A stretch of 32,000 nt of DNA from Candidatus Saccharimonadota bacterium (GCA_049296095.1 JBAQRV010000001.1:300001-332000); one strand, 5' to 3'; shown: positions 4,891-32,000, numbered from the stretch's first letter. Made by a program: numbers and translations. The notes: a model not told the origin generated them from the sequence alone.

Positions 4891-7506
4891 ATGAGTATCA
4901 TAGGCGACGTTATTAACTTCTTATTACAATGGTATGTTTGGCTGCCTGTTGTTTTGTTGCTCGGATTTCTCACTTGGCGCAATTACCGCAAGGTAGAAGC
5001 CGTCACTGACGTTGAAAGCAATCTCCTCATCCTCGAGATCCCAAAGACCAACGACAAGCAAGAACTGGCCGCCGAACAGCTCTTTGCCAGCCTCCACGGT
5101 ATCCTCCGCGATCGTCATGAGCTAAAGGCCAATGCTGGCATTCAAGAACATCTCAGCTTCGAAATCGCCTCAGTTAATGGCCAAATCCGCTTCTACGCCT
5201 GGGTACCAAAGACTCTCCGCAGCTTCGTCGAGAGCCAAATCTATTCCCAATATCCAACTGTCCAAATCTACGAAGCCGAAGAGGACTACGTCGCTCACGA
5301 ACGCGACCATAGCGTCGTTTACACCTCTGAAATCGTCATGACCGACAATGAAGTCCTGCCGATCAAGACTTTCCAAAACTTCGAAGTTGACCCGCTGGCC
5401 GGTATTACCGGGACGTTGGCCAAACTCGAAACTAGTGGTGAAGAGGTCTGGGTGCAGATACTCGTTAAACCTATCGCTGACGATTGGCACAAAAACTCAG
5501 AACGCTGGATCTCAGGCGTCAAAGGCGGCAAATCAAGCGCCGCCAAGGGTGGTTTTGGTTTTCTCGGTGGCATTCTCGAAGCTCTCTGGAAACCACCTGA
5601 AGAGTCAGCCAAAGAGGCTGCGAAGCCTAAGGAACTGTCCGATCGCGACAAAACTCGTATCGCTGAAGCTGAAAAGAAGGCTACCAAGCTTGGCTACCAA
5701 GTAAAAATCCGCCTGGCCTATCTAGGGGAGAGTAGTACCAGCGCCCGCCAGCGCATGCAGGCAATTGTTGGTACCTTCAAGCAATATAACAGCACAAACT
5801 TAAATGGCTTTAAAGTCGCCAGCGCTTCTTTCAAAAAAGAAGATCTGGCCAAATACCGCCAGCGCACTTTTGGGCGCGGTGCTTTCATTTTAAATATCGA
5901 GGAGCTGGCCTCAGTCTTCCACTTGCCGCACACCAACGTCGAAACGCCGAATATCGTTTGGGCGAGCTCAAAAACAGCCGAACCACCAGCCAAACTACCG
6001 ATCATTACTGGCAACCAGGCTATCGACGAGAACATTAGTGCTTTCGGCCTAACGAACTTCCGTGGTATCAACCACCAATTCGGCATGCTCCGCTCTGACC
6101 GCTCTCGTCACGTCTACATCATTGGACAGACCGGTGCTGGTAAATCAGGTACCCTGGAGCTCTTTGCGCTCAGCGACATCTTCCACGGCCAAGGCTATGC
6201 CATTATTGACCCGCATGGGGACTTTGCTGTTGATAACATGCGCTACATCCCTGGTAGTCGTATGCAAGAGGTCGTCTACTTCAACCCAGCCGACACCGCC
6301 TATCCACTGGGCTTCAACCCACTTGAGGTGTTCGATCCAAGCCAAAAAACCAACGTCAGCTCCGAGGTTATTGGCGTGCTAAAGCGTATGTTCGGCGAAA
6401 GCTGGGGGCCACGTCTCGAATACATCCTCCGATACACCATTCTAGCCCTGCTTGACCGTCCAAGCACCACCATGCTCGACATTACCCGCATGCTGACCGA
6501 CAAAAAATTCCGCAAAGAAACACTTGATTACTGTACCGATACCGTCGTGCTGCAGTTCTGGAACGTCGAGTTTGCCAGCTGGAACGAGAAGTTCCAATCT
6601 GAAGCTATCGCCCCAGTCCTCAACAAGGTCGGTGCCTTTACCGCCAACCCAGTTATCCGTAACATCATTGGCCAACCAAAATCAACCTTCAATATCCGCC
6701 AGATCATGGACGAGGGTCGTATCCTCATCGTCAACCTCTCTAAAGGTCTGATCGGTGAAGACAATGCTGCCATCCTTGGTGCTTTCATGGTCACCAAGAT
6801 CCAACTGGCCGCTATGAGCCGCTCAGACATTCCAAACATTGCCGATCGTCGTCCGTTCTACCTCTACGTCGACGAATTCCAGAACTTCGCGACAGATTCA
6901 TTTGCAACCATCCTGTCCGAGGCTCGTAAATACGGTCTCAACCTGACCGTGGCTAACCAGTACATCTCACAGATGACCGATACTGTTCGTGACGCTGTTT
7001 TTGGTAACGTCGGTACTATGATTTCATTCCGTGTCTCTGCCGACGACGCACCGATCCTATCAAAGCAATTCGAGCCGCAATTCGAACCAAACGACCTCCT
7101 GCAGATGCACAACCGAAACTTCGTGATCAACATGGTCATCAACGGTGAGAAGGCCCCAGCCTTCAGTGCTCGCACGCTCGAGCTCCCTCCAGAACAGATC
7201 GATAACACCGCCCTCATCATCGAGAACACCCGCCGTCTCTACAGCCGAAATAGATCAGAAATAGAACAAGAAATCAGTGAAGCAATCAAGGTTCCGCAAA
7301 ATCTCCAGCCAAAAGCTCAGCAGCAACCACAGTCCCAAGCGCAAGCCAAACAGTGGCCAATCGAAGCAGGGGCGAAAGCAGTAGAGCAGGTGATTCCAGC
7401 ACCATTCGGCTCAGCAGAGCAGGGGAGTGTAGATCCCGACGCACCAGTAAAGAAGAAGCGCAAGCGGACGCGGAAGCGAAAGCCAGCAGCGTTGCAAGGT
7501 GAGTAA
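4891..7506 (+). CDS. membrane-anchored VirD4/TraD/TraG-like (type IV coupling protein-like) P-loop ATPase
   Basis: N-terminal TM segment (WYVWLPVVLLLGFLTW), Walker A (IIGQTGAGKSGT), Walker B (FYLYVDEFQNF), and ARKYGLNLTVANQYISQM typical of the T4CP/TraG-D_C region. About 370 aa of uncharacterised N-terminal domain. Disordered Q/P-rich C-terminus ending in KKKRKRTRKRK. Confidence 0.75.
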   Translation: MSIIGDVINFLLQWYVWLPVVLLLGFLTWRNYRKVEAVTDVESNLLILEIPKTNDKQELAAEQLFASLHGILRDRHELKANAGIQEHLSFEIASVNGQIRFYAWVPKTLRSFVESQIYSQYPTVQIYEAEEDYVAHERDHSVVYTSEIVMTDNEVLPIKTFQNFEVDPLAGITGTLAKLETSGEEVWVQILVKPIADDWHKNSERWISGVKGGKSSAAKGGFGFLGGILEALWKPPEESAKEAAKPKELSDRDKTRIAEAEKKATKLGYQVKIRLAYLGESSTSARQRMQAIVGTFKQYNSTNLNGFKVASASFKKEDLAKYRQRTFGRGAFILNIEELASVFHLPHTNVETPNIVWASSKTAEPPAKLPIITGNQAIDENISAFGLTNFRGINHQFGMLRSDRSRHVYIIGQTGAGKSGTLELFALSDIFHGQGYAIIDPHGDFAVDNMRYIPGSRMQEVVYFNPADTAYPLGFNPLEVFDPSQKTNVSSEVIGVLKRMFGESWGPRLEYILRYTILALLDRPSTTMLDITRMLTDKKFRKETLDYCTDTVVLQFWNVEFASWNEKFQSEAIAPVLNKVGAFTANPVIRNIIGQPKSTFNIRQIMDEGRILIVNLSKGLIGEDNAAILGAFMVTKIQLAAMSRSDIPNIADRRPFYLYVDEFQNFATDSFATILSEARKYGLNLTVANQYISQMTDTVRDAVFGNVGTMISFRVSADDAPILSKQFEPQFEPNDLLQMHNRNFVINMVINGEKAPAFSARTLELPPEQIDNTALIIENTRRLYSRNRSEIEQEISEAIKVPQNLQPKAQQQPQSQAQAKQWPIEAGAKAVEQVIPAPFGSAEQGSVDPDAPVKKKRKRTRKRKPAALQGE

Positions 7507-19703: not shown

Positions 19704-21221
19704 CTATTCTACTACGTCCTCGCCAAAGTGTTTTTGGAGACGCATCCGTATCGAGCCTTCGTGACGACCCAACAACTTGCTCAAACTTTTAATCGAACTG
19801 CCGTTTAGGAATTTCTCTTTCAGCTGAGCGTCCTGAGCAGCTTCCCAGGGACGATAGGCATTTGGATATTCCTCACGCATCTTGGCGATCTTGTCGGACC
19901 AGCCGCTGGCTTTCGGCGCGTCCTTGACTGGCTCGCTTGCTCTCTTGGCTGCCTTTTTTTCTAACGCGGCAAAGCGCTGAGCATCGCGAGCAGCTCGACT
20001 CCGCAAAATCTCATCAATCGTTTGCGCATCTTCACTCACTTTCAAAGCCATCTGATTTATCCCCGTTAAATACAGGTTGTTCAAATTTTTTACTCGGCTG
20101 AGCGCCACATAACCCATCCCCTCAACAAAGGCTTTTCGCAGGTCAATACGAGCCGCATCAAGCGTCATGCCTTGGGACTTGTGAACGGTAATCGCCCAGG
20201 CCAAACGGAGTGGAATCTGGCTAATACTGGCACGTTTTTTGTCGCCATCGCGTAGTTCCCAGGTATCGGGGACCATTGAGACAACCTTGCCATTCTTAAA
20301 CTCAACAATTGGATACTCGGTGTGCGGCTCAAAATCTATCACTGTCCCCAGGCTCCCATTCACATACTTACGTTCGGCGCTATTCTTTACCGACATCACC
20401 AGGGCGCCTTTTTTTAGTTTCAAGGCAGCTGGCGCTAACACCGATCGCTGAAGCGACTCGACGTATCCCTCCGACCCAGTCGTCGTCTGCGAATAGGTAA
20501 TCTCATCCCCCTCGATCTCGGCTAATTTGGCAGCATTCATGCTATCAACATCAACATTCACCGTGTGGAGCTCTGTGAGTATCTCGAACTCATCAGGATA
20601 TACTTCAGAGCGCGTCAGTAAAGTCTCGGCATGATGACGACGCACGTCCCCTGCGCGAATGGCATTGAGTATTTCAAGCAACGTCTCATCGTCCTGGCGG
20701 TGTTGTTCCTGCAAATAGCAGATCACTGGATCGAGTTCCTGCCAGACCCGAGAATTGACAACAAAACCGCCAGCCCGTGAATCACCCCTATTAATAGGTG
20801 GTAGCTGGAAGAAATCACCACTCATAATCAGCTGAATGCCACCAAAAGGCTCGTCGACTTTTCGAACCAGCCGACAGACCTCATCAACCATGTCCAGACG
20901 AAAATCGTGCAACATACTAATCTCATCAATAATCAGGACATCGGTTTTTTCGATAATCTCACGGCGGCCCTTGGCGACATGTTCAGCAAAGCCGTTCGGG
21001 AGCGAATCCTGGACCCCAATCCCCGCCCAACTATGAATCGTCGAACCTCCGAGGTGGGTAGCGGCCAGTCCTGTCGTCGCCGTTACAGAAATGTGCTTGC
21101 CTTCATGTTTGGCAAGCTTAATAAATTGATTCAATACAAAGGTCTTGCCGGCGCCCGCTGGACCGGTCAAAAGCACACTTTCTCCCGAGAGCATTATCTC
21201 GAGTGCTAACCCCTGATTCAT
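19704..21221 (-). CDS. Pif1/RecD-like SF1B DNA helicase with a C-terminal HTH-like extension
   Basis: Motif I LLTGPAGAGKTF, Ia VTATTGLAATHLGGSTIHSWAGIG, II VLIIDEISML, III GGIQLIMSGDFFQLPPI and V ITVHKSQGMTLD. About 100 aa of C-terminal extension. A TATAAT lies 7 nt upstream of the ATG. Confidence 0.85.
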   Translation of the reverse strand: MNQGLALEIMLSGESVLLTGPAGAGKTFVLNQFIKLAKHEGKHISVTATTGLAATHLGGSTIHSWAGIGVQDSLPNGFAEHVAKGRREIIEKTDVLIIDEISMLHDFRLDMVDEVCRLVRKVDEPFGGIQLIMSGDFFQLPPINRGDSRAGGFVVNSRVWQELDPVICYLQEQHRQDDETLLEILNAIRAGDVRRHHAETLLTRSEVYPDEFEILTELHTVNVDVDSMNAAKLAEIEGDEITYSQTTTGSEGYVESLQRSVLAPAALKLKKGALVMSVKNSAERKYVNGSLGTVIDFEPHTEYPIVEFKNGKVVSMVPDTWELRDGDKKRASISQIPLRLAWAITVHKSQGMTLDAARIDLRKAFVEGMGYVALSRVKNLNNLYLTGINQMALKVSEDAQTIDEILRSRAARDAQRFAALEKKAAKRASEPVKDAPKASGWSDKIAKMREEYPNAYRPWEAAQDAQLKEKFLNGSSIKSLSKLLGRHEGSIRMRLQKHFGEDVVE

Positions 21222-21272: not shown

Positions 21273-22268
21273 TTATCCCCGCGGCGGCTCGCCCTCAGGA
21301 TCGTCGAGCAACTTCTTCGCCTTTACCTCGTACCGCTTCCCTGTAATCTGGCTGGTAATGTAATCTTCATTTATTAAGTTCACGAACATATCGAGGTCAT
21401 TGCCATCGATAATAATGATCGAGCCGTCGTCATCGCTCATCAGTTCGAGTTCCATATCATCGGCATATTCCAGCGCCTGGGTTTGAGAAACGGCTCCAAC
21501 TTCCAGTTTCTGCAATTTATTGACGATTTTCTTGCGTTCTCGAACGAGTGATTGCAAGTCTAAACCATCAGGGAAACTCAACTTATAATGCTTTTCAATC
21601 TCAGAGACCTTCTGATCAGCCAGTAATTGCTTTTTATATTCAAAGTTAAACAAGCGTTCGAACTTACTTTGATTAAAGATAAAAATATCGTCATCAGCAA
21701 TCAACACTTGATTATCAATCGGCACTTTCCAGCCAAAGTCAGACTTAAAGGCTTCGAACTTGCCACTCTTAAACTCCCAGGCGGTCGCACCAGCCAGCAC
21801 CCCGCCTTGATTCACCTGCTTGACAACGTAGAACGGCTTTGAACCATCCTTGCGACTAAATCGGGCAATGATGCCCTTAATGCGCTTAAAGTCGTGCTCC
21901 TCATGCGCGAACTCGACGATATCAGCCCGCTCATGTTCAATCAGATTTATGAGTGTCTGGGCATGATTCACTTTCTCTAGCTCAATCCGTAGCAGAACGT
22001 TCTCTTCCTTCTCGCTCATCTCGTATTCGCGAACCGTCAACCCAGTTCCCGCACCAAGTGTGACGGTATTCATGAGGTCATAAAGGAAAATCGGCTTCAA
22101 TTGAGCATCAAGCTCATTACCAACAGTGGTCGTATAGGGGGTATAGTTTCGATTAAATAAGAAAAACTCAATGTTGAGTTCGCCTTTGACCGCATCGGTA
22201 CTATTGGCCCATTGAAAAATATCAGTTCGCTCGCGAGTCTCTTCAGTCTTTGGTGTTTGATCGTCCAT
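21273..22268 (-). CDS. DUF4868-like protein (KwaB family of the Kiwa anti-phage system), orphan
   Basis: Size and segment pattern match my recollection of KwaB/DUF4868: a central IKGII...FYVVKQV block, ...VLIADDDIFIFNQSKFERLFNFEYK, and a C-terminal LINEDYITSQITGKRYEV. This comes from memory of the family, not from a search. ATG 22268 is preferred, and the listed TTG 22289 is the alternative. Confidence 0.55.
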   Translation of the reverse strand: MDDQTPKTEETRERTDIFQWANSTDAVKGELNIEFFLFNRNYTPYTTTVGNELDAQLKPIFLYDLMNTVTLGAGTGLTVREYEMSEKEENVLLRIELEKVNHAQTLINLIEHERADIVEFAHEEHDFKRIKGIIARFSRKDGSKPFYVVKQVNQGGVLAGATAWEFKSGKFEAFKSDFGWKVPIDNQVLIADDDIFIFNQSKFERLFNFEYKKQLLADQKVSEIEKHYKLSFPDGLDLQSLVRERKKIVNKLQKLEVGAVSQTQALEYADDMELELMSDDDGSIIIIDGNDLDMFVNLINEDYITSQITGKRYEVKAKKLLDDPEGEPPRG

Positions 22269-22297
22269 GTCTGTCTTTCGTTTAAGCAACAGAGCCT

Positions 22298-23570: not shown

Positions 23571-24896
23571 CTATTTAGCGACTCGAAACCCGACGGTGGA
23601 GTACGCACTACTTGGCGTATCACTCAAAACAAGCGTCAATACACCTGTGTAGTTTGCATTACCCCAATCGCCGCCACGAAGGTAGGTACGCGTGTTCGTG
23701 TTACTGTAGTTACTATAAAGCTGACCTATACCCTGCGTGGACGAATAGCTAGCAACCGTTCCAGATATAGCACTCGGTCGGCTGTTCACAGGGAGACCAT
23801 TCATAAGTAGCGATCCGTTATTCCACTCTTTCCAAGCAAATGCCGACTCACCAGAAAGCCCTGGTTGCTGACCACTAGCAATGGTGGCATTTGTCCATTC
23901 ATATACATTACCAGCTAGGTCCCAAATCACCTCCCCATTCGTGAGTGTTAGTGTGCGGCGCTGATTACTGCCAGTCGTTTGACCAGTACCGCTATAGCCA
24001 TCGTTATCGTCAGTTGAAGCGGCTAACGAGTTGGCCGGAACGTTGTCATTGTGTCCTGAGTAGATATAGCCGCTCCCCACACTGCCCCCAGACCAGTTAG
24101 ACGCGACCGACAACACATTGGCGGCAATCGTCATCCACTCCGCCTCAGTGATAAGGTGACAGCCCGAACAGGCTCCGGTCGCCGTCGCAATCGCACTCGT
24201 CTGCGAGATGCTCACCCACGGCGCCCCTGCCGCCTCACTAACGGTGAAGCCGCTTGAATTCTTGGCCTCGTATTTCATCACACAAAAGTCGTCCGTTCCA
24301 AAGGTCGTGTTACCAGGCACGACAATATAGCCAGTCGGACACGACACGGCCGCAATCGCTCCGTCGGCACCCGTCCAGCTCAACCATTGACCATCCACCA
24401 TTCCAGCAATATCACCGAACGATTGGTAGGTCGGGTCAATGCTCGCACAGGTTTCATCCCAGTTTGCGGCAACGTCCGTCCACTCGACAGTACCCGTGTA
24501 TTCGCTAATGCCCGATTCACCCTTGGCGACAAATCGCTTGAGAGAGCGCGACATCGCGATAATTGCATACTCGGTCGCGCTAGGGTTCAAACATATGTAC
24601 ATATTTGCCATCGTGTTGACATCATACGATCCACCAGTAACTTTTACATCGAGATTGCCGAGTTCGAGGTACGAGTCAGGGTAAGTTCCGCCCGAATCCA
24701 ACGCAAACTGCTTGAAGGCATCGTCTATCTTTTGAAGATCGCTTTTTACCGCACTGTCATGGGCATTATTAACCACCGCACCGTAGCCCACGGCGACGAC
24801 CGCTGCAAGAATAGCGATAATAACAATAACGACAATCAACTCGACAATCGAAAAGCCCTGATGTGAGCGAGGTCGTTGTTGTATCCACCCTGTCAT
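23571..24896 (-). CDS. type IV pilin-like protein fused to an FGE-sulfatase / C-type-lectin-fold domain
   Basis: Class III signal: MTGWIQQRPRSHQG|FSIVELIVVIVIIAILAA with Glu at +5. The C-terminal half has FGE-sulfatase family motifs (LITEAEWMTIA, GNVYEWT, RGGDW, GFRVAK). I chose the start at ATG 24896 because the longer ORF to 24983 would overlap the glyQS 3' end. Confidence 0.8.
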   Translation of the reverse strand: MTGWIQQRPRSHQGFSIVELIVVIVIIAILAAVVAVGYGAVVNNAHDSAVKSDLQKIDDAFKQFALDSGGTYPDSYLELGNLDVKVTGGSYDVNTMANMYICLNPSATEYAIIAMSRSLKRFVAKGESGISEYTGTVEWTDVAANWDETCASIDPTYQSFGDIAGMVDGQWLSWTGADGAIAAVSCPTGYIVVPGNTTFGTDDFCVMKYEAKNSSGFTVSEAAGAPWVSISQTSAIATATGACSGCHLITEAEWMTIAANVLSVASNWSGGSVGSGYIYSGHNDNVPANSLAASTDDNDGYSGTGQTTGSNQRRTLTLTNGEVIWDLAGNVYEWTNATIASGQQPGLSGESAFAWKEWNNGSLLMNGLPVNSRPSAISGTVASYSSTQGIGQLYSNYSNTNTRTYLRGGDWGNANYTGVLTLVLSDTPSSAYSTVGFRVAK

Positions 24897-24933
24897 AGTG
24901 CCTTCATTATACCGCAAGCGGAATAAAAATGTA

Positions 24934-26223
24934 TTAAATCTCGTCGATGCTCTTACGAGTCTGCTCGGTCGTATCACGATCACGGACGGTCACCGTGCCG
25001 TCTTCGAGGGTATCAAAGTCGATAACCACGCAGTACGGCGTGCCGATCTCGTCCTGACGACGATAGCGCTTGCCGATATTACCGTTATCATCCCACATGA
25101 CGTTACCGTATTTCTTTTTCAAGAAATCATAAACCTCACGGGCCTTAGCTACAATCTCTGGTTTGTTGCGAACTAGTGGTGACACAGCATATTTCACCGG
25201 TGCGAGGTGCGCTGGTAGTTTCAAGACGATCCGCTTCTCGCCGTTCACTTCATCTTCGGTATAAGCAGTTGAGAGGACGGCCATCAGGGCGCGCTCGACA
25301 CCGAATGATGGCTCAATCACGTGCGGAACAAACTTTGTATCAGTTCCCTTGATGGTGTATTCCATATTCTTGCCACTCACCCGTTGGATGTTCTGCAAAT
25401 CAAAATCAGTACGATAGGCCAACCCGAGCAACTCTTCCTTACCGATAGGAAAATCAAACTCAAAGTCGATCGTTCGCTTACTATAGTGGGCGCGGTCGCT
25501 CTCAGGAACTTCTAGTTCATGGACGTTCTCATCAGGCAGACCGAGAGCCTGCGTCCACTTCCACACCTGCTGACGCCAATGCTCAAAAGCTTGTTCCCAC
25601 TTCGCTGGATCAACAAAGTATTCGATCTCCATCTGTTCAAACTCGCGGCTGCGGAAGATAAAGTCACGGGGGCTGATTTCATTACGAAATGCCTTGCCCT
25701 GCTGCGCAAGACCGAATGGTAAATCAGGATAAAAGGTATCGACAACATTTTTGTAGTTGGTAAAGATACCTTGGGCAGTTTCAGGGCGGAGGTAACTAAT
25801 GCTTGATTCGTCATCAACAGGACCGACATTGGTCTTGAACATCATGTTAAACTGGCGCGCTTCACCAAAAGTATGCTCCTTGCCGCAGGTTGGACATTTC
25901 GAAGTGTCGATCTTATCAGCACGGAATCGTCCATGACAATTTGAACATTCCACAAGTGGATCAGTAAACGTATCAACATGTCCACTCGCCTGCCACACCT
26001 TTTGATTCATCAAGATCGCCGCATCGACACCATGCATATCATCACGTTCTTCAACAAACATCTTCCACCATAGTTGCATGATATTACGTTTCAAAATCAC
26101 ACCCAGCGGACCATAGTCCCAAGTACCGCTCAGGCCGCCATAAACATCTGATCCAGGGTAAATAAATCCGCGGCGCTTCGCCAACGACACAATGTTTTCC
26201 ATTTTTTGATGTTGTTCGTTCAT
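24934..26223 (-). CDS. glyQS: glycine--tRNA ligase (dimeric class II type)
   Basis: IVSLAKRRGFIYPGSDVYGGLSGTWDYGPLGV N-terminus, class II motifs (FRNEISPR, GVERA), and a C-terminal anticodon-binding domain. Confidence 0.93.
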   Translation of the reverse strand: MNEQHQKMENIVSLAKRRGFIYPGSDVYGGLSGTWDYGPLGVILKRNIMQLWWKMFVEERDDMHGVDAAILMNQKVWQASGHVDTFTDPLVECSNCHGRFRADKIDTSKCPTCGKEHTFGEARQFNMMFKTNVGPVDDESSISYLRPETAQGIFTNYKNVVDTFYPDLPFGLAQQGKAFRNEISPRDFIFRSREFEQMEIEYFVDPAKWEQAFEHWRQQVWKWTQALGLPDENVHELEVPESDRAHYSKRTIDFEFDFPIGKEELLGLAYRTDFDLQNIQRVSGKNMEYTIKGTDTKFVPHVIEPSFGVERALMAVLSTAYTEDEVNGEKRIVLKLPAHLAPVKYAVSPLVRNKPEIVAKAREVYDFLKKKYGNVMWDDNGNIGKRYRRQDEIGTPYCVVIDFDTLEDGTVTVRDRDTTEQTRKSIDEI

Positions 26224-26263
26224 AACTAGGGCTCATTATAGCATATTCGTCTCTGTTGATAGA

Positions 26264-26292
26264 TTGACTTTTATAGCTATTTTTGGTATAAT
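26264..26292 (+). promoter_or_regulatory. sigma-70-type promoter TTGACT-17 nt-TATAAT
   Basis: TTGACT at 26264-26269, 17-nt spacer, TATAAT at 26287-26292. It is upstream of the 26339 start. Confidence 0.7.
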
Positions 26293-26338
26293 ATATGGCA
26301 GTTCTTTCCCAATCCAGTGACCAACCAGAGGAGATGTT

Positions 26339-31291: not shown

Positions 31292-32000
31292 ATTTCGCTA
31301 CCGTGAGTTGATAGAAGACATATCCAAATAAGATCGTACCGAGTACCAAGGTCACACGGGCAATCAGCGTCCCGGCAATCGCCACGTCGGCCGACACATT
31401 ACTCGAAGCGAGAAAGGCAATCATAATCGCCTCGTACACACCCGCACCCCCAGGTGTCACCGAAATAGCACTCGCAATCGAGGCCAGGCCGAAGGCAACA
31501 AACAGCAATGCTGGGTTAATCATATAGCCAAGCGCCCAAAAAGCGATCCAGATCAAAGCAACATCAGCGAGATTAGCCAGTATCGCCCACACAAACGGTC
31601 GGATAAGGATACGTCGATCTTTACGAATCGCTATATAATCATCATGTAGCTCCCCGAAAAAGTGAATCAATACTTCAATTTTGACCAGGTTTTTCTTTCG
31701 ACCCCTTGTAAAGAACGACACGACACGATTCGCTAGTCGCGTAAGCCACTGCGAGAATTGCTCTAGACGTGGTTTGCTCTTGATAACCCAAATAACAAAC
31801 CAAGTCGCTCCGATACATAGCACCGCCAGCCCGACGCAAATGAATATAATCATACGGTCAATCCGATGATCGATCACCAAAGCGACAACCGCCACTAGTA
31901 GAATTAATAAGAAACTAATAAAGGTCAGCGCAAACCGAATAATCTGTGCCATCGTTGATCGCCCCACACCCACTCCCCGACGACTCAAGACCCAACTTAA
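31272..32000 (-). CDS. flippase-like / LPG-synthase-TM (UPF0104) family membrane protein, possibly 5'-truncated
   Basis: Multi-TM protein with the family-typical TPGGAGVYEAIM loop. The frame stays open to the window end, so the start (TTG 31988, ATG 31952, or beyond the window) is unresolved. Confidence 0.65.
   Translation of the reverse strand, partial: LSWVLSRRGVGVGRSTMAQIIRFALTFISFLLILLVAVVALVIDHRIDRMIIFICVGLAVLCIGATWFVIWVIKSKPRLEQFSQWLTRLANRVVSFFTRGRKKNLVKIEVLIHFFGELHDDYIAIRKDRRILIRPFVWAILANLADVALIWIAFWALGYMINPALLFVAFGLASIASAISVTPGGAGVYEAIMIAFLASSNVSADVAIAGTLIARVTLVLGTILFGYVFYQLTVAKYGKRTT

Follow-up and report, generated by a model that had tools for sequence, protein, structure and literature searches.

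The window analysed here is a stretch of 32,000 nucleotides (nt) from a Candidatus Saccharimonadota bacterium (GCA_049296095.1 JBAQRV010000001.1:300001-332000). On its minus strand lies a gene for a modular type IV pilin with a C-terminal domain that has a C-type-lectin (CLec)/FGE-sulfatase fold, and the tail of this domain, as judged by codon alignment, is homologous to verified variable regions (VRs) of diversity-generating retroelements (DGRs). The open reading frame (ORF) comprises 441 codons, from an ATG at 24896 to a TAG stop at 23571-23573, and its parts are listed in Table 1. The exact protein is annotated in three NCBI metagenome-assembled genome (MAG) records and is also present in Logan contigs.

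The N-terminus reads MTGWIQQRPRSHQG followed by FSIVELIVVIVIIAILAAVVAVGYG, which corresponds to a class III signal peptide (Gly -1, Phe +1, Glu +5; junction ...SHQG/FSIVE), and cleavage by a prepilin peptidase is predicted after the leader Gly. This prepilin signal had been recognized in an initial annotation of the window and is confirmed by Pfam N_methyl (PF07963), which scores 31.4 bits vs. a cut-off of 21.2. In addition, over the N-terminal ~110 residues the family profile hits type IV pilins of solved structure (Geopilin, PilA, PilE and GspG chains), with E-values of 7e-14 to 1e-6. The full-length AlphaFold2 (AF2) model has a helix at residues 17-67; it is poor overall (pLDDT 56; 23-sequence alignment) and was replaced by a model of the C-terminal domain only. 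Alignments further show a ~50-aa insertion in the globular/linker region that is specific to the clade of orthologs linked to the GlyRS gene.

For the C-terminal domain, the FGE-sulfatase/CLec fold that had been proposed from short motifs is supported both by the Pfam FGE-sulfatase hidden Markov model (PF03781; 33.8 bits vs. a cut-off of 23.3) and by structure prediction, since the AF2 model of the C-terminal 261 residues is a confident one (pLDDT 95.9, pTM 0.93; 95-sequence alignment). The top match to this model in a Foldseek search of the PDB is TaqVP (5vf4), a DGR variable protein of Thermus aquaticus (E 5e-11, TM 0.62). It is followed by formylglycine-generating enzymes (FGEs), Mtd of a Bordetella phage, EgtB and Treponema TvpA, with 34 matches at E<=1e-3.

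The Pfam match, together with the name ‘SUMF1/EgtB/PvdO family nonheme iron enzyme’ that some homologs carry in databases, could also point to a secreted or pseudopilin-anchored enzyme of the formylglycine-generating or sulfoxide-synthase type. The catalytic cysteine pair of FGEs sits in the C-terminal subdomain. The cysteines of the window protein are C102, C150, C186, C205, C243 and C246 only, so that none is present in the last 195 residues, and this argues against enzymatic activity. Furthermore, the nearest fold is a DGR variable protein and not an enzyme, while the segment that matches the active-site region is the hypervariable part of the domain. Given the cysteine-free tail and TaqVP as the closest fold, an FGE/EgtB enzyme identity was rejected as extremely improbable; the CLec domain is more plausibly a non-enzymatic binding scaffold.

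The window protein ends in YSNYSNTNTRTYLRGGDWGNANYTGVLTLVLSDTPSSAYSTVGFRVAK, a tail that had been quoted in the initial annotation as VR-like on account of its RGGxW...GFRxA layout. The layout is present, but as a motif it is general to the FGE fold and alone does not diagnose a VR; the diagnostic feature is the set of hypervariable columns between the RGGxW and GFRxA motifs. In this respect the resemblance goes further than had been claimed. The window tail aligns codon for codon with the 123-nt template repeat (TR) of a relative at locus L003 (TR003) and with the VRs of the relatives at L003, L004, L206 and L207. It is homologous, column for column, to VRs of related genomes that have verified TRs (the VR/TR pairs of L003 and L206). 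Across 95 homologs, the mean entropy of the tail columns is 2.87 bits at adenine-bearing template codons vs. 1.09 bits elsewhere (Mann-Whitney p=7e-7), and columns above 2.5 bits account for 76% of the adenine columns vs. 4% in the rest of the domain. Variation in the GlyRS-linked clade reaches ~5 codons further upstream, to ~23711. At its 3′ end, the tail reads GTCGGGTTTCGAGTCGCTAAATAG in the window vs. ATCGGTTTCCGGGT(T/G)GCCAGG, which is common to L003, L004 and L206.

The family to which the window protein belongs is large and occurs widely among Saccharibacteria. A homolog search returned more than 1,700 relatives, and the lectin domain matches 835 clusters at E<=1e-30 among 1.8 billion cluster representatives, i.e. 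at least 835 at 50% identity. The prepilin N_methyl motif is found in 91 of 94 sampled homologs. In three relatives (L003, L206 and L207), the accessory gene bAvd follows the pilin gene. L003 lies on an 821-kb ENA scaffold and encodes pilin P0038, which is 58% identical to the window protein; here bAvd comes immediately after the pilin gene, then a gene on the opposite strand for a 383-aa RVT_1 protein, and a 123-nt repeat of P0038's own last 41 codons serves as TR (L003:12797-12919). All of the mismatches between this TR and the VR fall at template adenines (14/14). The layout is the same in L206 (pilin P0083), where 12/12 mismatches are at TR adenines, and in L207 (pilin P0037) the target is followed by bAvd until the contig stops inside the Avd gene. 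Two further co-locations of a pilin with a reverse transcriptase (RT) are suggested by equally sized contigs of 5,086 and 4,206 bp.

A DGR of this family need not lie beside its target. The L003 scaffold carries at least six paralogs, of which the L004 paralog is 190 kb from the cassette. The tail of the latter (L004:10001-11203) equals the TR at every scaffold position, save for a 3-nt insertion (GGC TAC for AAC) and two non-adenine point differences (ATT to CGT and AAC to GAA), which reflect either mutation after homing or a second template in the genome. Synonymous differences between the L004 tail and the L003 VR number 0/30, vs. 56/164 over the remainder of the domain (p=2e-5). Since L004 matches a template 190 kb away, remote targets exist in the pilin family. 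Three other proteins of the same scaffold (P0055, P0065 and P0069) are incompatible with the L003 template, as judged from their protein sequences. Taken together, the pilin family is a genuine DGR target in several Saccharibacteria genomes.

Several other features of the family were observed. The templates of L003 and L206 are ~93% identical, while their RTs are only 77% identical. The L206 cassette adjoins a conjugation-type type IV secretion system (T4SS) cluster at L206:9517-15775 (T4SS_pilin, TrbL_3, TraC-like, VirB4-like ATPase, CHAP and coupling protein), which suggests possible movement of the cassette, together with its pilin target, on a mobile element. Some members are ‘long forms’ with two tandem CLec domains, each ending in a VR-like tail (P0004, P0006, P0008, P0009, P0011, P0014, P0015, P0018, P0024 and P0031, as well as P0330-P0337 and others). 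Around one example, L126:10001-11989, no DGR parts lie within +/-10 kb. Among cluster representatives, 2-6 copies of the CLec domain occur in proteins of up to 3,761 aa.

In the window gene, the tail carries a pattern at the codons that are homologous to AAY template codons (Y, pyrimidine). At these positions, 10/10 codons are NNY vs. 59% gene-wide (p=0.005). Likewise, four-fold degenerate codons at AAY-homologous positions end in a pyrimidine in 10/11 cases in the clade vs. a baseline of 55% (p=0.014), and in 14/15 cases among members without a cassette when the relative L208 is added (p=0.002). Adenine mutagenesis of AAY codons would be expected to leave such a footprint, for which amino-acid preference alone is a poor explanation. 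Moreover, compared with the ortholog L127 of a sister species, amino-acid divergence is 41% in the tail, a ~4-fold excess over the 10% of the remaining lectin domain (p=7e-6).

A fast-evolving tail could also arise if the gene had never been a DGR target in this lineage, with the end of a CLec loop changing under diversifying selection or relaxed constraint and DGRs recruiting paralogs elsewhere. The generic nature of the RGGxW...GFR motifs is compatible with such a history, as are the fact that Y/S/N/D/G-rich binding sites arise without DGRs, the syntenic orthologs seen without DGR parts on their contigs and the background-level synonymous rates of the tail (see below). However, the variable columns coincide with template adenines, and amino-acid preference alone predicts neither the NNY pattern nor the pyrimidine bias at neutral four-fold codons. 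We therefore regard a history without any DGR as improbable, and it is likely that a DGR at some point wrote the binding-site codons of the window gene.

DGR parts were searched for in the window and in positions 64871-112008 of contig JBAQET010000003.1, i.e. in 47 kb, the genome as a whole being an estimated 0.7-0.9 Mb. The 32,000-nt window contains no RT, no Avd and no repeat of the tail, in agreement with the initial annotation, and the 47 kb likewise contain no RT or Avd detectable by annotation or by tblastn with two family RTs and one Avd. No TR was found in the same 47 kb by an adenine-tolerant scan (<=10 non-A mismatches per 90 nt), which as a control recovered the TRs of L003 and L206 with zero non-adenine mismatches. 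The pilus assembly genes pilB, pilC and pilD, for which the initial annotation had pointed beyond the window, are also absent from this region. No RT, Avd or TR is present on the 11-13 kb contigs of the syntenic orthologs L125, L127 and L128.

Searches beyond the contig gave weak negatives. Among the best 120 of 6,686 relatives of a Saccharibacteria DGR RT, none is tied to contigs of the window organism, nor is a second family member among the best 120 homologs listed. When the C-terminal 139 aa were used to look for VR variants in fragments or for paralogs in the same genome, nothing near-identical emerged; only short proteins came up, the best at 68% identity. P0070 was considered as a same-genome paralog and rejected, as it belongs to another assembly. 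Derivation of the window tail from a template of the L003/L206 type was also rejected, because of many non-adenine differences that include synonymous scaffold positions; any TR for the window gene would therefore be lineage-specific.

Comparison among alleles bears on whether the window copy is still being diversified. The tail of the window protein is identical in at least four assemblies (the three NCBI MAGs and the Logan contigs). Between the sister strains L127 and L128, only 2 of ~15 variable codons differ. This argues against current activity, since most of these codons would be re-randomised by two independent retrohoming events (cf. L003 vs. L004). In the P0010 and P0052 clusters, tails are alike save for one or two substitutions, while the pilin domains are very different. 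It should be noted that cassette-linked tails show a low fraction of synonymous differences (0.00-0.27 vs. 0.34-0.62 elsewhere; p 9e-6 to 0.04), presumably due to copying from conserved templates. The corresponding fraction for the window tail vs. L127 is 0.46, against a background of 0.51 (p=0.83), and comparison with L125, L207 and L003 likewise reveals no synonymous conservation.

The stability of the allele and the lack of template-imposed conservation favour a VR that is orphaned or very rarely rewritten. The reading we prefer, with modest confidence, is that of a modular pilin adhesin with a DGR-shaped binding site that is now orphaned or only rarely rewritten. The architecture and the homology to true VRs are secure. 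The hypervariable adhesin envisaged in the initial annotation suits the family better than the window copy, for which the comparative evidence leans against ongoing diversification, and the accompanying caveat that active diversification was unproven was well placed. The window gene counts as a good adhesin candidate rather than as a proven case of hypervariability.

A number of observations pull away from this interpretation. The identical alleles may stem from a single study and a single population (runs SRR28062869 and SRR28062879 are numbered close together), and the ~47 kb inspected are a small part of a 0.7-0.9 Mb genome in a family that has remote targets. The two differences between L127 and L128 (GAT/AAT and ACT/AAT) are both A-to-non-A changes at AAY-homologous codons. 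Pyrimidine-ending four-fold codons persist even though synonymous sites are near-saturated among the window gene, L127 and L125; this bias should have been randomised had the VR been orphaned before these lineages split, which hints at DGR writing after the split. The NNY bias could also stem from a preference for N/D/Y/S/T/G residues in binding sites.

Several of these observations would suit an active remote (trans) target. One Saccharibacteria cassette, located elsewhere and probably beside a paralog, would serve several scattered pilin genes, and the window gene would still be rewritten from a lineage-specific TR at low frequency or under tight control. The remote target L004, with its scaffold identical to a TR 190 kb away, provides a precedent, and DGRs are enriched in bacteria of the candidate phyla radiation (CPR; PMC8144416). 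The footprints that persist in synonymously saturated lineages, the kind of changes that separate L127 from L128 and the 4-fold excess of tail divergence from the sister species are all in keeping with it. On the other hand, the identity of the VR in at least four assemblies, the missing synonymous conservation, the two-codon difference between sister strains where independent homing would re-randomise most codons, and the failure to tie either an RT or a second family member to the organism's contigs among the best 120 matches each count against it, albeit weakly. We consider continued rewriting in trans a distinct but lesser possibility.

If the window copy is indeed an orphaned or rarely rewritten VR, the following mechanism can be proposed. 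The class III signal peptide and the polymerisation helix would direct the window protein into a type IV pilus, where it would probably be a subunit of low abundance or at the tip, and the grafted C-terminal CLec/FGE module would act as a non-enzymatic ligand binder of the kind used by DGRs. In cassette-bearing relatives, Avd and RT copy the TR with adenine-specific errors into the last ~41 codons, which randomises ~15 binding-site residues while the scaffold remains fixed. The window copy appears to behave as a fixed allele, with ordinary substitution under relaxed or diversifying selection. Its product would then be an adhesin of fixed specificity for surface ligands of a host bacterium, probably glycans.

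Table 1. Features of the pilin gene, in coordinates of the window.
Feature	Coordinates	Strand	Basis
Complete modular type IV pilin gene with C-terminal CLec/FGE-fold domain	23571..24896	-	ORF list, Pfam, identical proteins
Prepilin leader peptide (predicted), residues 1-14, MTGWIQQRPRSHQG, ends in Gly	24855..24896	-	Sequence; Pfam N_methyl residues 10-34
Mature N-terminus F15-S-I-V-E19 (predicted) and hydrophobic alpha-1 polymerisation helix	24762..24854	-	N_methyl, profile, AF2
Pilin globular/linker region, residues ~46-180	24357..24761	-	Alignments; low-confidence model
CLec/FGE-sulfatase-fold ligand-binding domain, residues 181-441	23574..24356	-	Pfam, AF2, Foldseek
VR-homologous tail, last 41 codons, NTRTYLRGGDWGNANYTGVLTLVLSDTPSSAYSTVGFRVAK	23574..23696	-	Codon alignment to VR/TR of relatives

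With respect to the start of the gene, a longer ORF from a GTG at 24983 was considered unlikely, as the end of the upstream GlyRS gene would be overlapped. A perfect TATAAT (24911-24906, minus strand) ends 9 nt 5′ of the pilin ATG, within 24897-24920, and given this position the pilin mRNA would be leaderless or nearly so. This TATAAT has no -35 element, hence it is not called by a consensus promoter scan. The DNA upstream of the ATG is kept in the orthologs; gene callers there lengthen the ORF to read ‘LRYNEITM...’.

The window is otherwise an ordinary chromosomal stretch of a Saccharibacterium that contains mostly housekeeping genes. These include topoisomerase I and the mraZ/mraW/ftsI/mraY/ftsW/murG cluster, along with genes for a T4SS coupling-protein-like ATPase, CofD, a GH1 glycosidase, a PIF1 helicase and a KwaB-like protein. 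Also present are genes for RNase H, DUF427, DUF1761, the pilin, GlyRS, RecO, a two-component system and XseA, and the pilin gene sits at a conserved housekeeping locus (GlyRS-pilin-DUF1761-DUF427-RNase H). In L125, L127 and L128 the order is GlyRS, pilin, (DUF1761), DUF427, RNase H and PIF1, and the orthologous pilins are 63% (L125) and 84% (L127 and L128) identical to that of the window.

A second pilin-like gene is found on the same contig, ~15 kb past window position 32000. It encodes a 511-aa protein (L210:708-2243) that combines a prepilin N_methyl motif with RCC1/WD40-like beta-propeller repeats, the architecture reported for PilX2, a minor pilin of TM7x that binds the host (PMC11623550). 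At least two modular pilins are therefore encoded in this part of the genome.

Elsewhere in the window, the KwaB-like gene (21273-22289, minus strand; Pfam KwaB, E 1e-8), whose namesake is a component of the Kiwa anti-phage system, adjoins the PIF1-family helicase gene (19704-21221, minus strand). No obvious KwaA is found beside it, and in the syntenic sister species the KwaB-like gene is absent (L127/L128) or replaced (L125). Positions 4891-7506 (plus strand) encode an 871-aa VirD4/TrwB-like coupling-protein ATPase with a DUF8128 N-terminus, followed by a DUF2268 predicted Zn protease; the ATPase may be related to the Patescibacteria T4SS of bioRxiv 10.1101/2025.01.22.634366. Finally, two near-consensus sigma-70 promoters (TTGACA, 17 nt, TATAAT) at 2201-2236 and 26263-26298 (plus strand) were scored as a 36-nt direct repeat family. 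Rather than forming a repeat element, they probably act as strong promoters of the genes that begin at 2297 and 26339.

Saccharibacteria depend on type IV pili for binding to their host bacteria (PMC9894109, PMC11623550). A DGR-type lectin module fused to a pilin, in a family with verified cassettes, provides a concrete and testable mechanism by which these ultrasmall epibionts might vary their host specificity. Should the window gene be an active trans target, DGRs would be linked directly to the organelle that mediates attachment of the epibiont to its host, i.e. to a reprogrammable host-recognition pilus. Furthermore, the occurrence of cassette-linked and cassette-less, apparently frozen copies in one family offers a natural system for following the fate of a VR once its retroelement is gone or distant. 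As far as our literature search reaches, the use of type IV pilins as DGR targets in Saccharibacteria appears to be new at the family level; the window gene is a member of this family without a cassette in the 47 kb covered.

DGRs of the CPR/Patescibacteria were reportedly a subject of Paul et al. in 2017. That DGRs occur in CPR bacteria and that their targets have the CLec/FGE fold is established (PMC8144416, PMC11661182). In the survey of Roux et al. 2021 (PMC8144416), the CPR/Patescibacteria DGRs (clade 2) are chromosomal, have CLec targets, often several, and belong to epibionts with small genomes; the targets are typically without a recognisable transmembrane or conserved domain. In this the window pilin family differs, given the recognisable prepilin motif in nearly all of its sampled members. 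A ‘GspG-type pilin’ is named in passing among the rare VR-holding domains in one survey (PMC11661182), and our literature search found no paper in which fusions to a type IV pilin are presented as targets of DGRs in Saccharibacteria.

Among characterized DGR variable proteins, TaqVP (Thermus aquaticus, 5VF4), TvpA (Treponema denticola, 2Y3C) and Mtd (phage BPP-1, 1YU*) share their fold with the window domain. As in these proteins, the variable residues fall within the last ~40 codons, flanked by the scaffold motifs RGGxW and GFR, and the relatives of the window protein have the corresponding machinery, namely a 123-nt TR with adenine-only mismatches, bAvd and RT. In contrast to them, the window protein joins this fold to a type IV prepilin N-terminus, which would mean display on a pilus filament, not on a phage tail fibre or in lipoprotein form; the window copy also differs from these systems in that no TR or RT was found for it within the 47 kb.

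As a modular pilin, the window protein resembles PilB and PilC of Streptococcus sanguinis and PilX1 and PilX2 of Nanosynbacter lyticus TM7x, in which a canonical pilin N-terminus likewise carries a grafted C-terminal binding module, and the lectin-like minor pilins of TM7x contribute to host binding (PMC8179133, PMC11623550). It differs from the TM7x pilins by its DGR-type CLec module (the terms ‘sulfatase’, ‘FGE’ and ‘retroelement’ are absent from the TM7x pilin paper), and from all of these modular pilins by the location of its gene outside any pil operon. The closest parallel in concept is provided by the DGR-diversified tip adhesins of type V pili in Bacteroides (bioRxiv 10.1101/2024.11.15.621889), where it is also the ligand-binding end of a pilus subunit that is hypermutated, although the pilus is of type V and not type IV, the phylum is another and the N-terminal domain is a different one.

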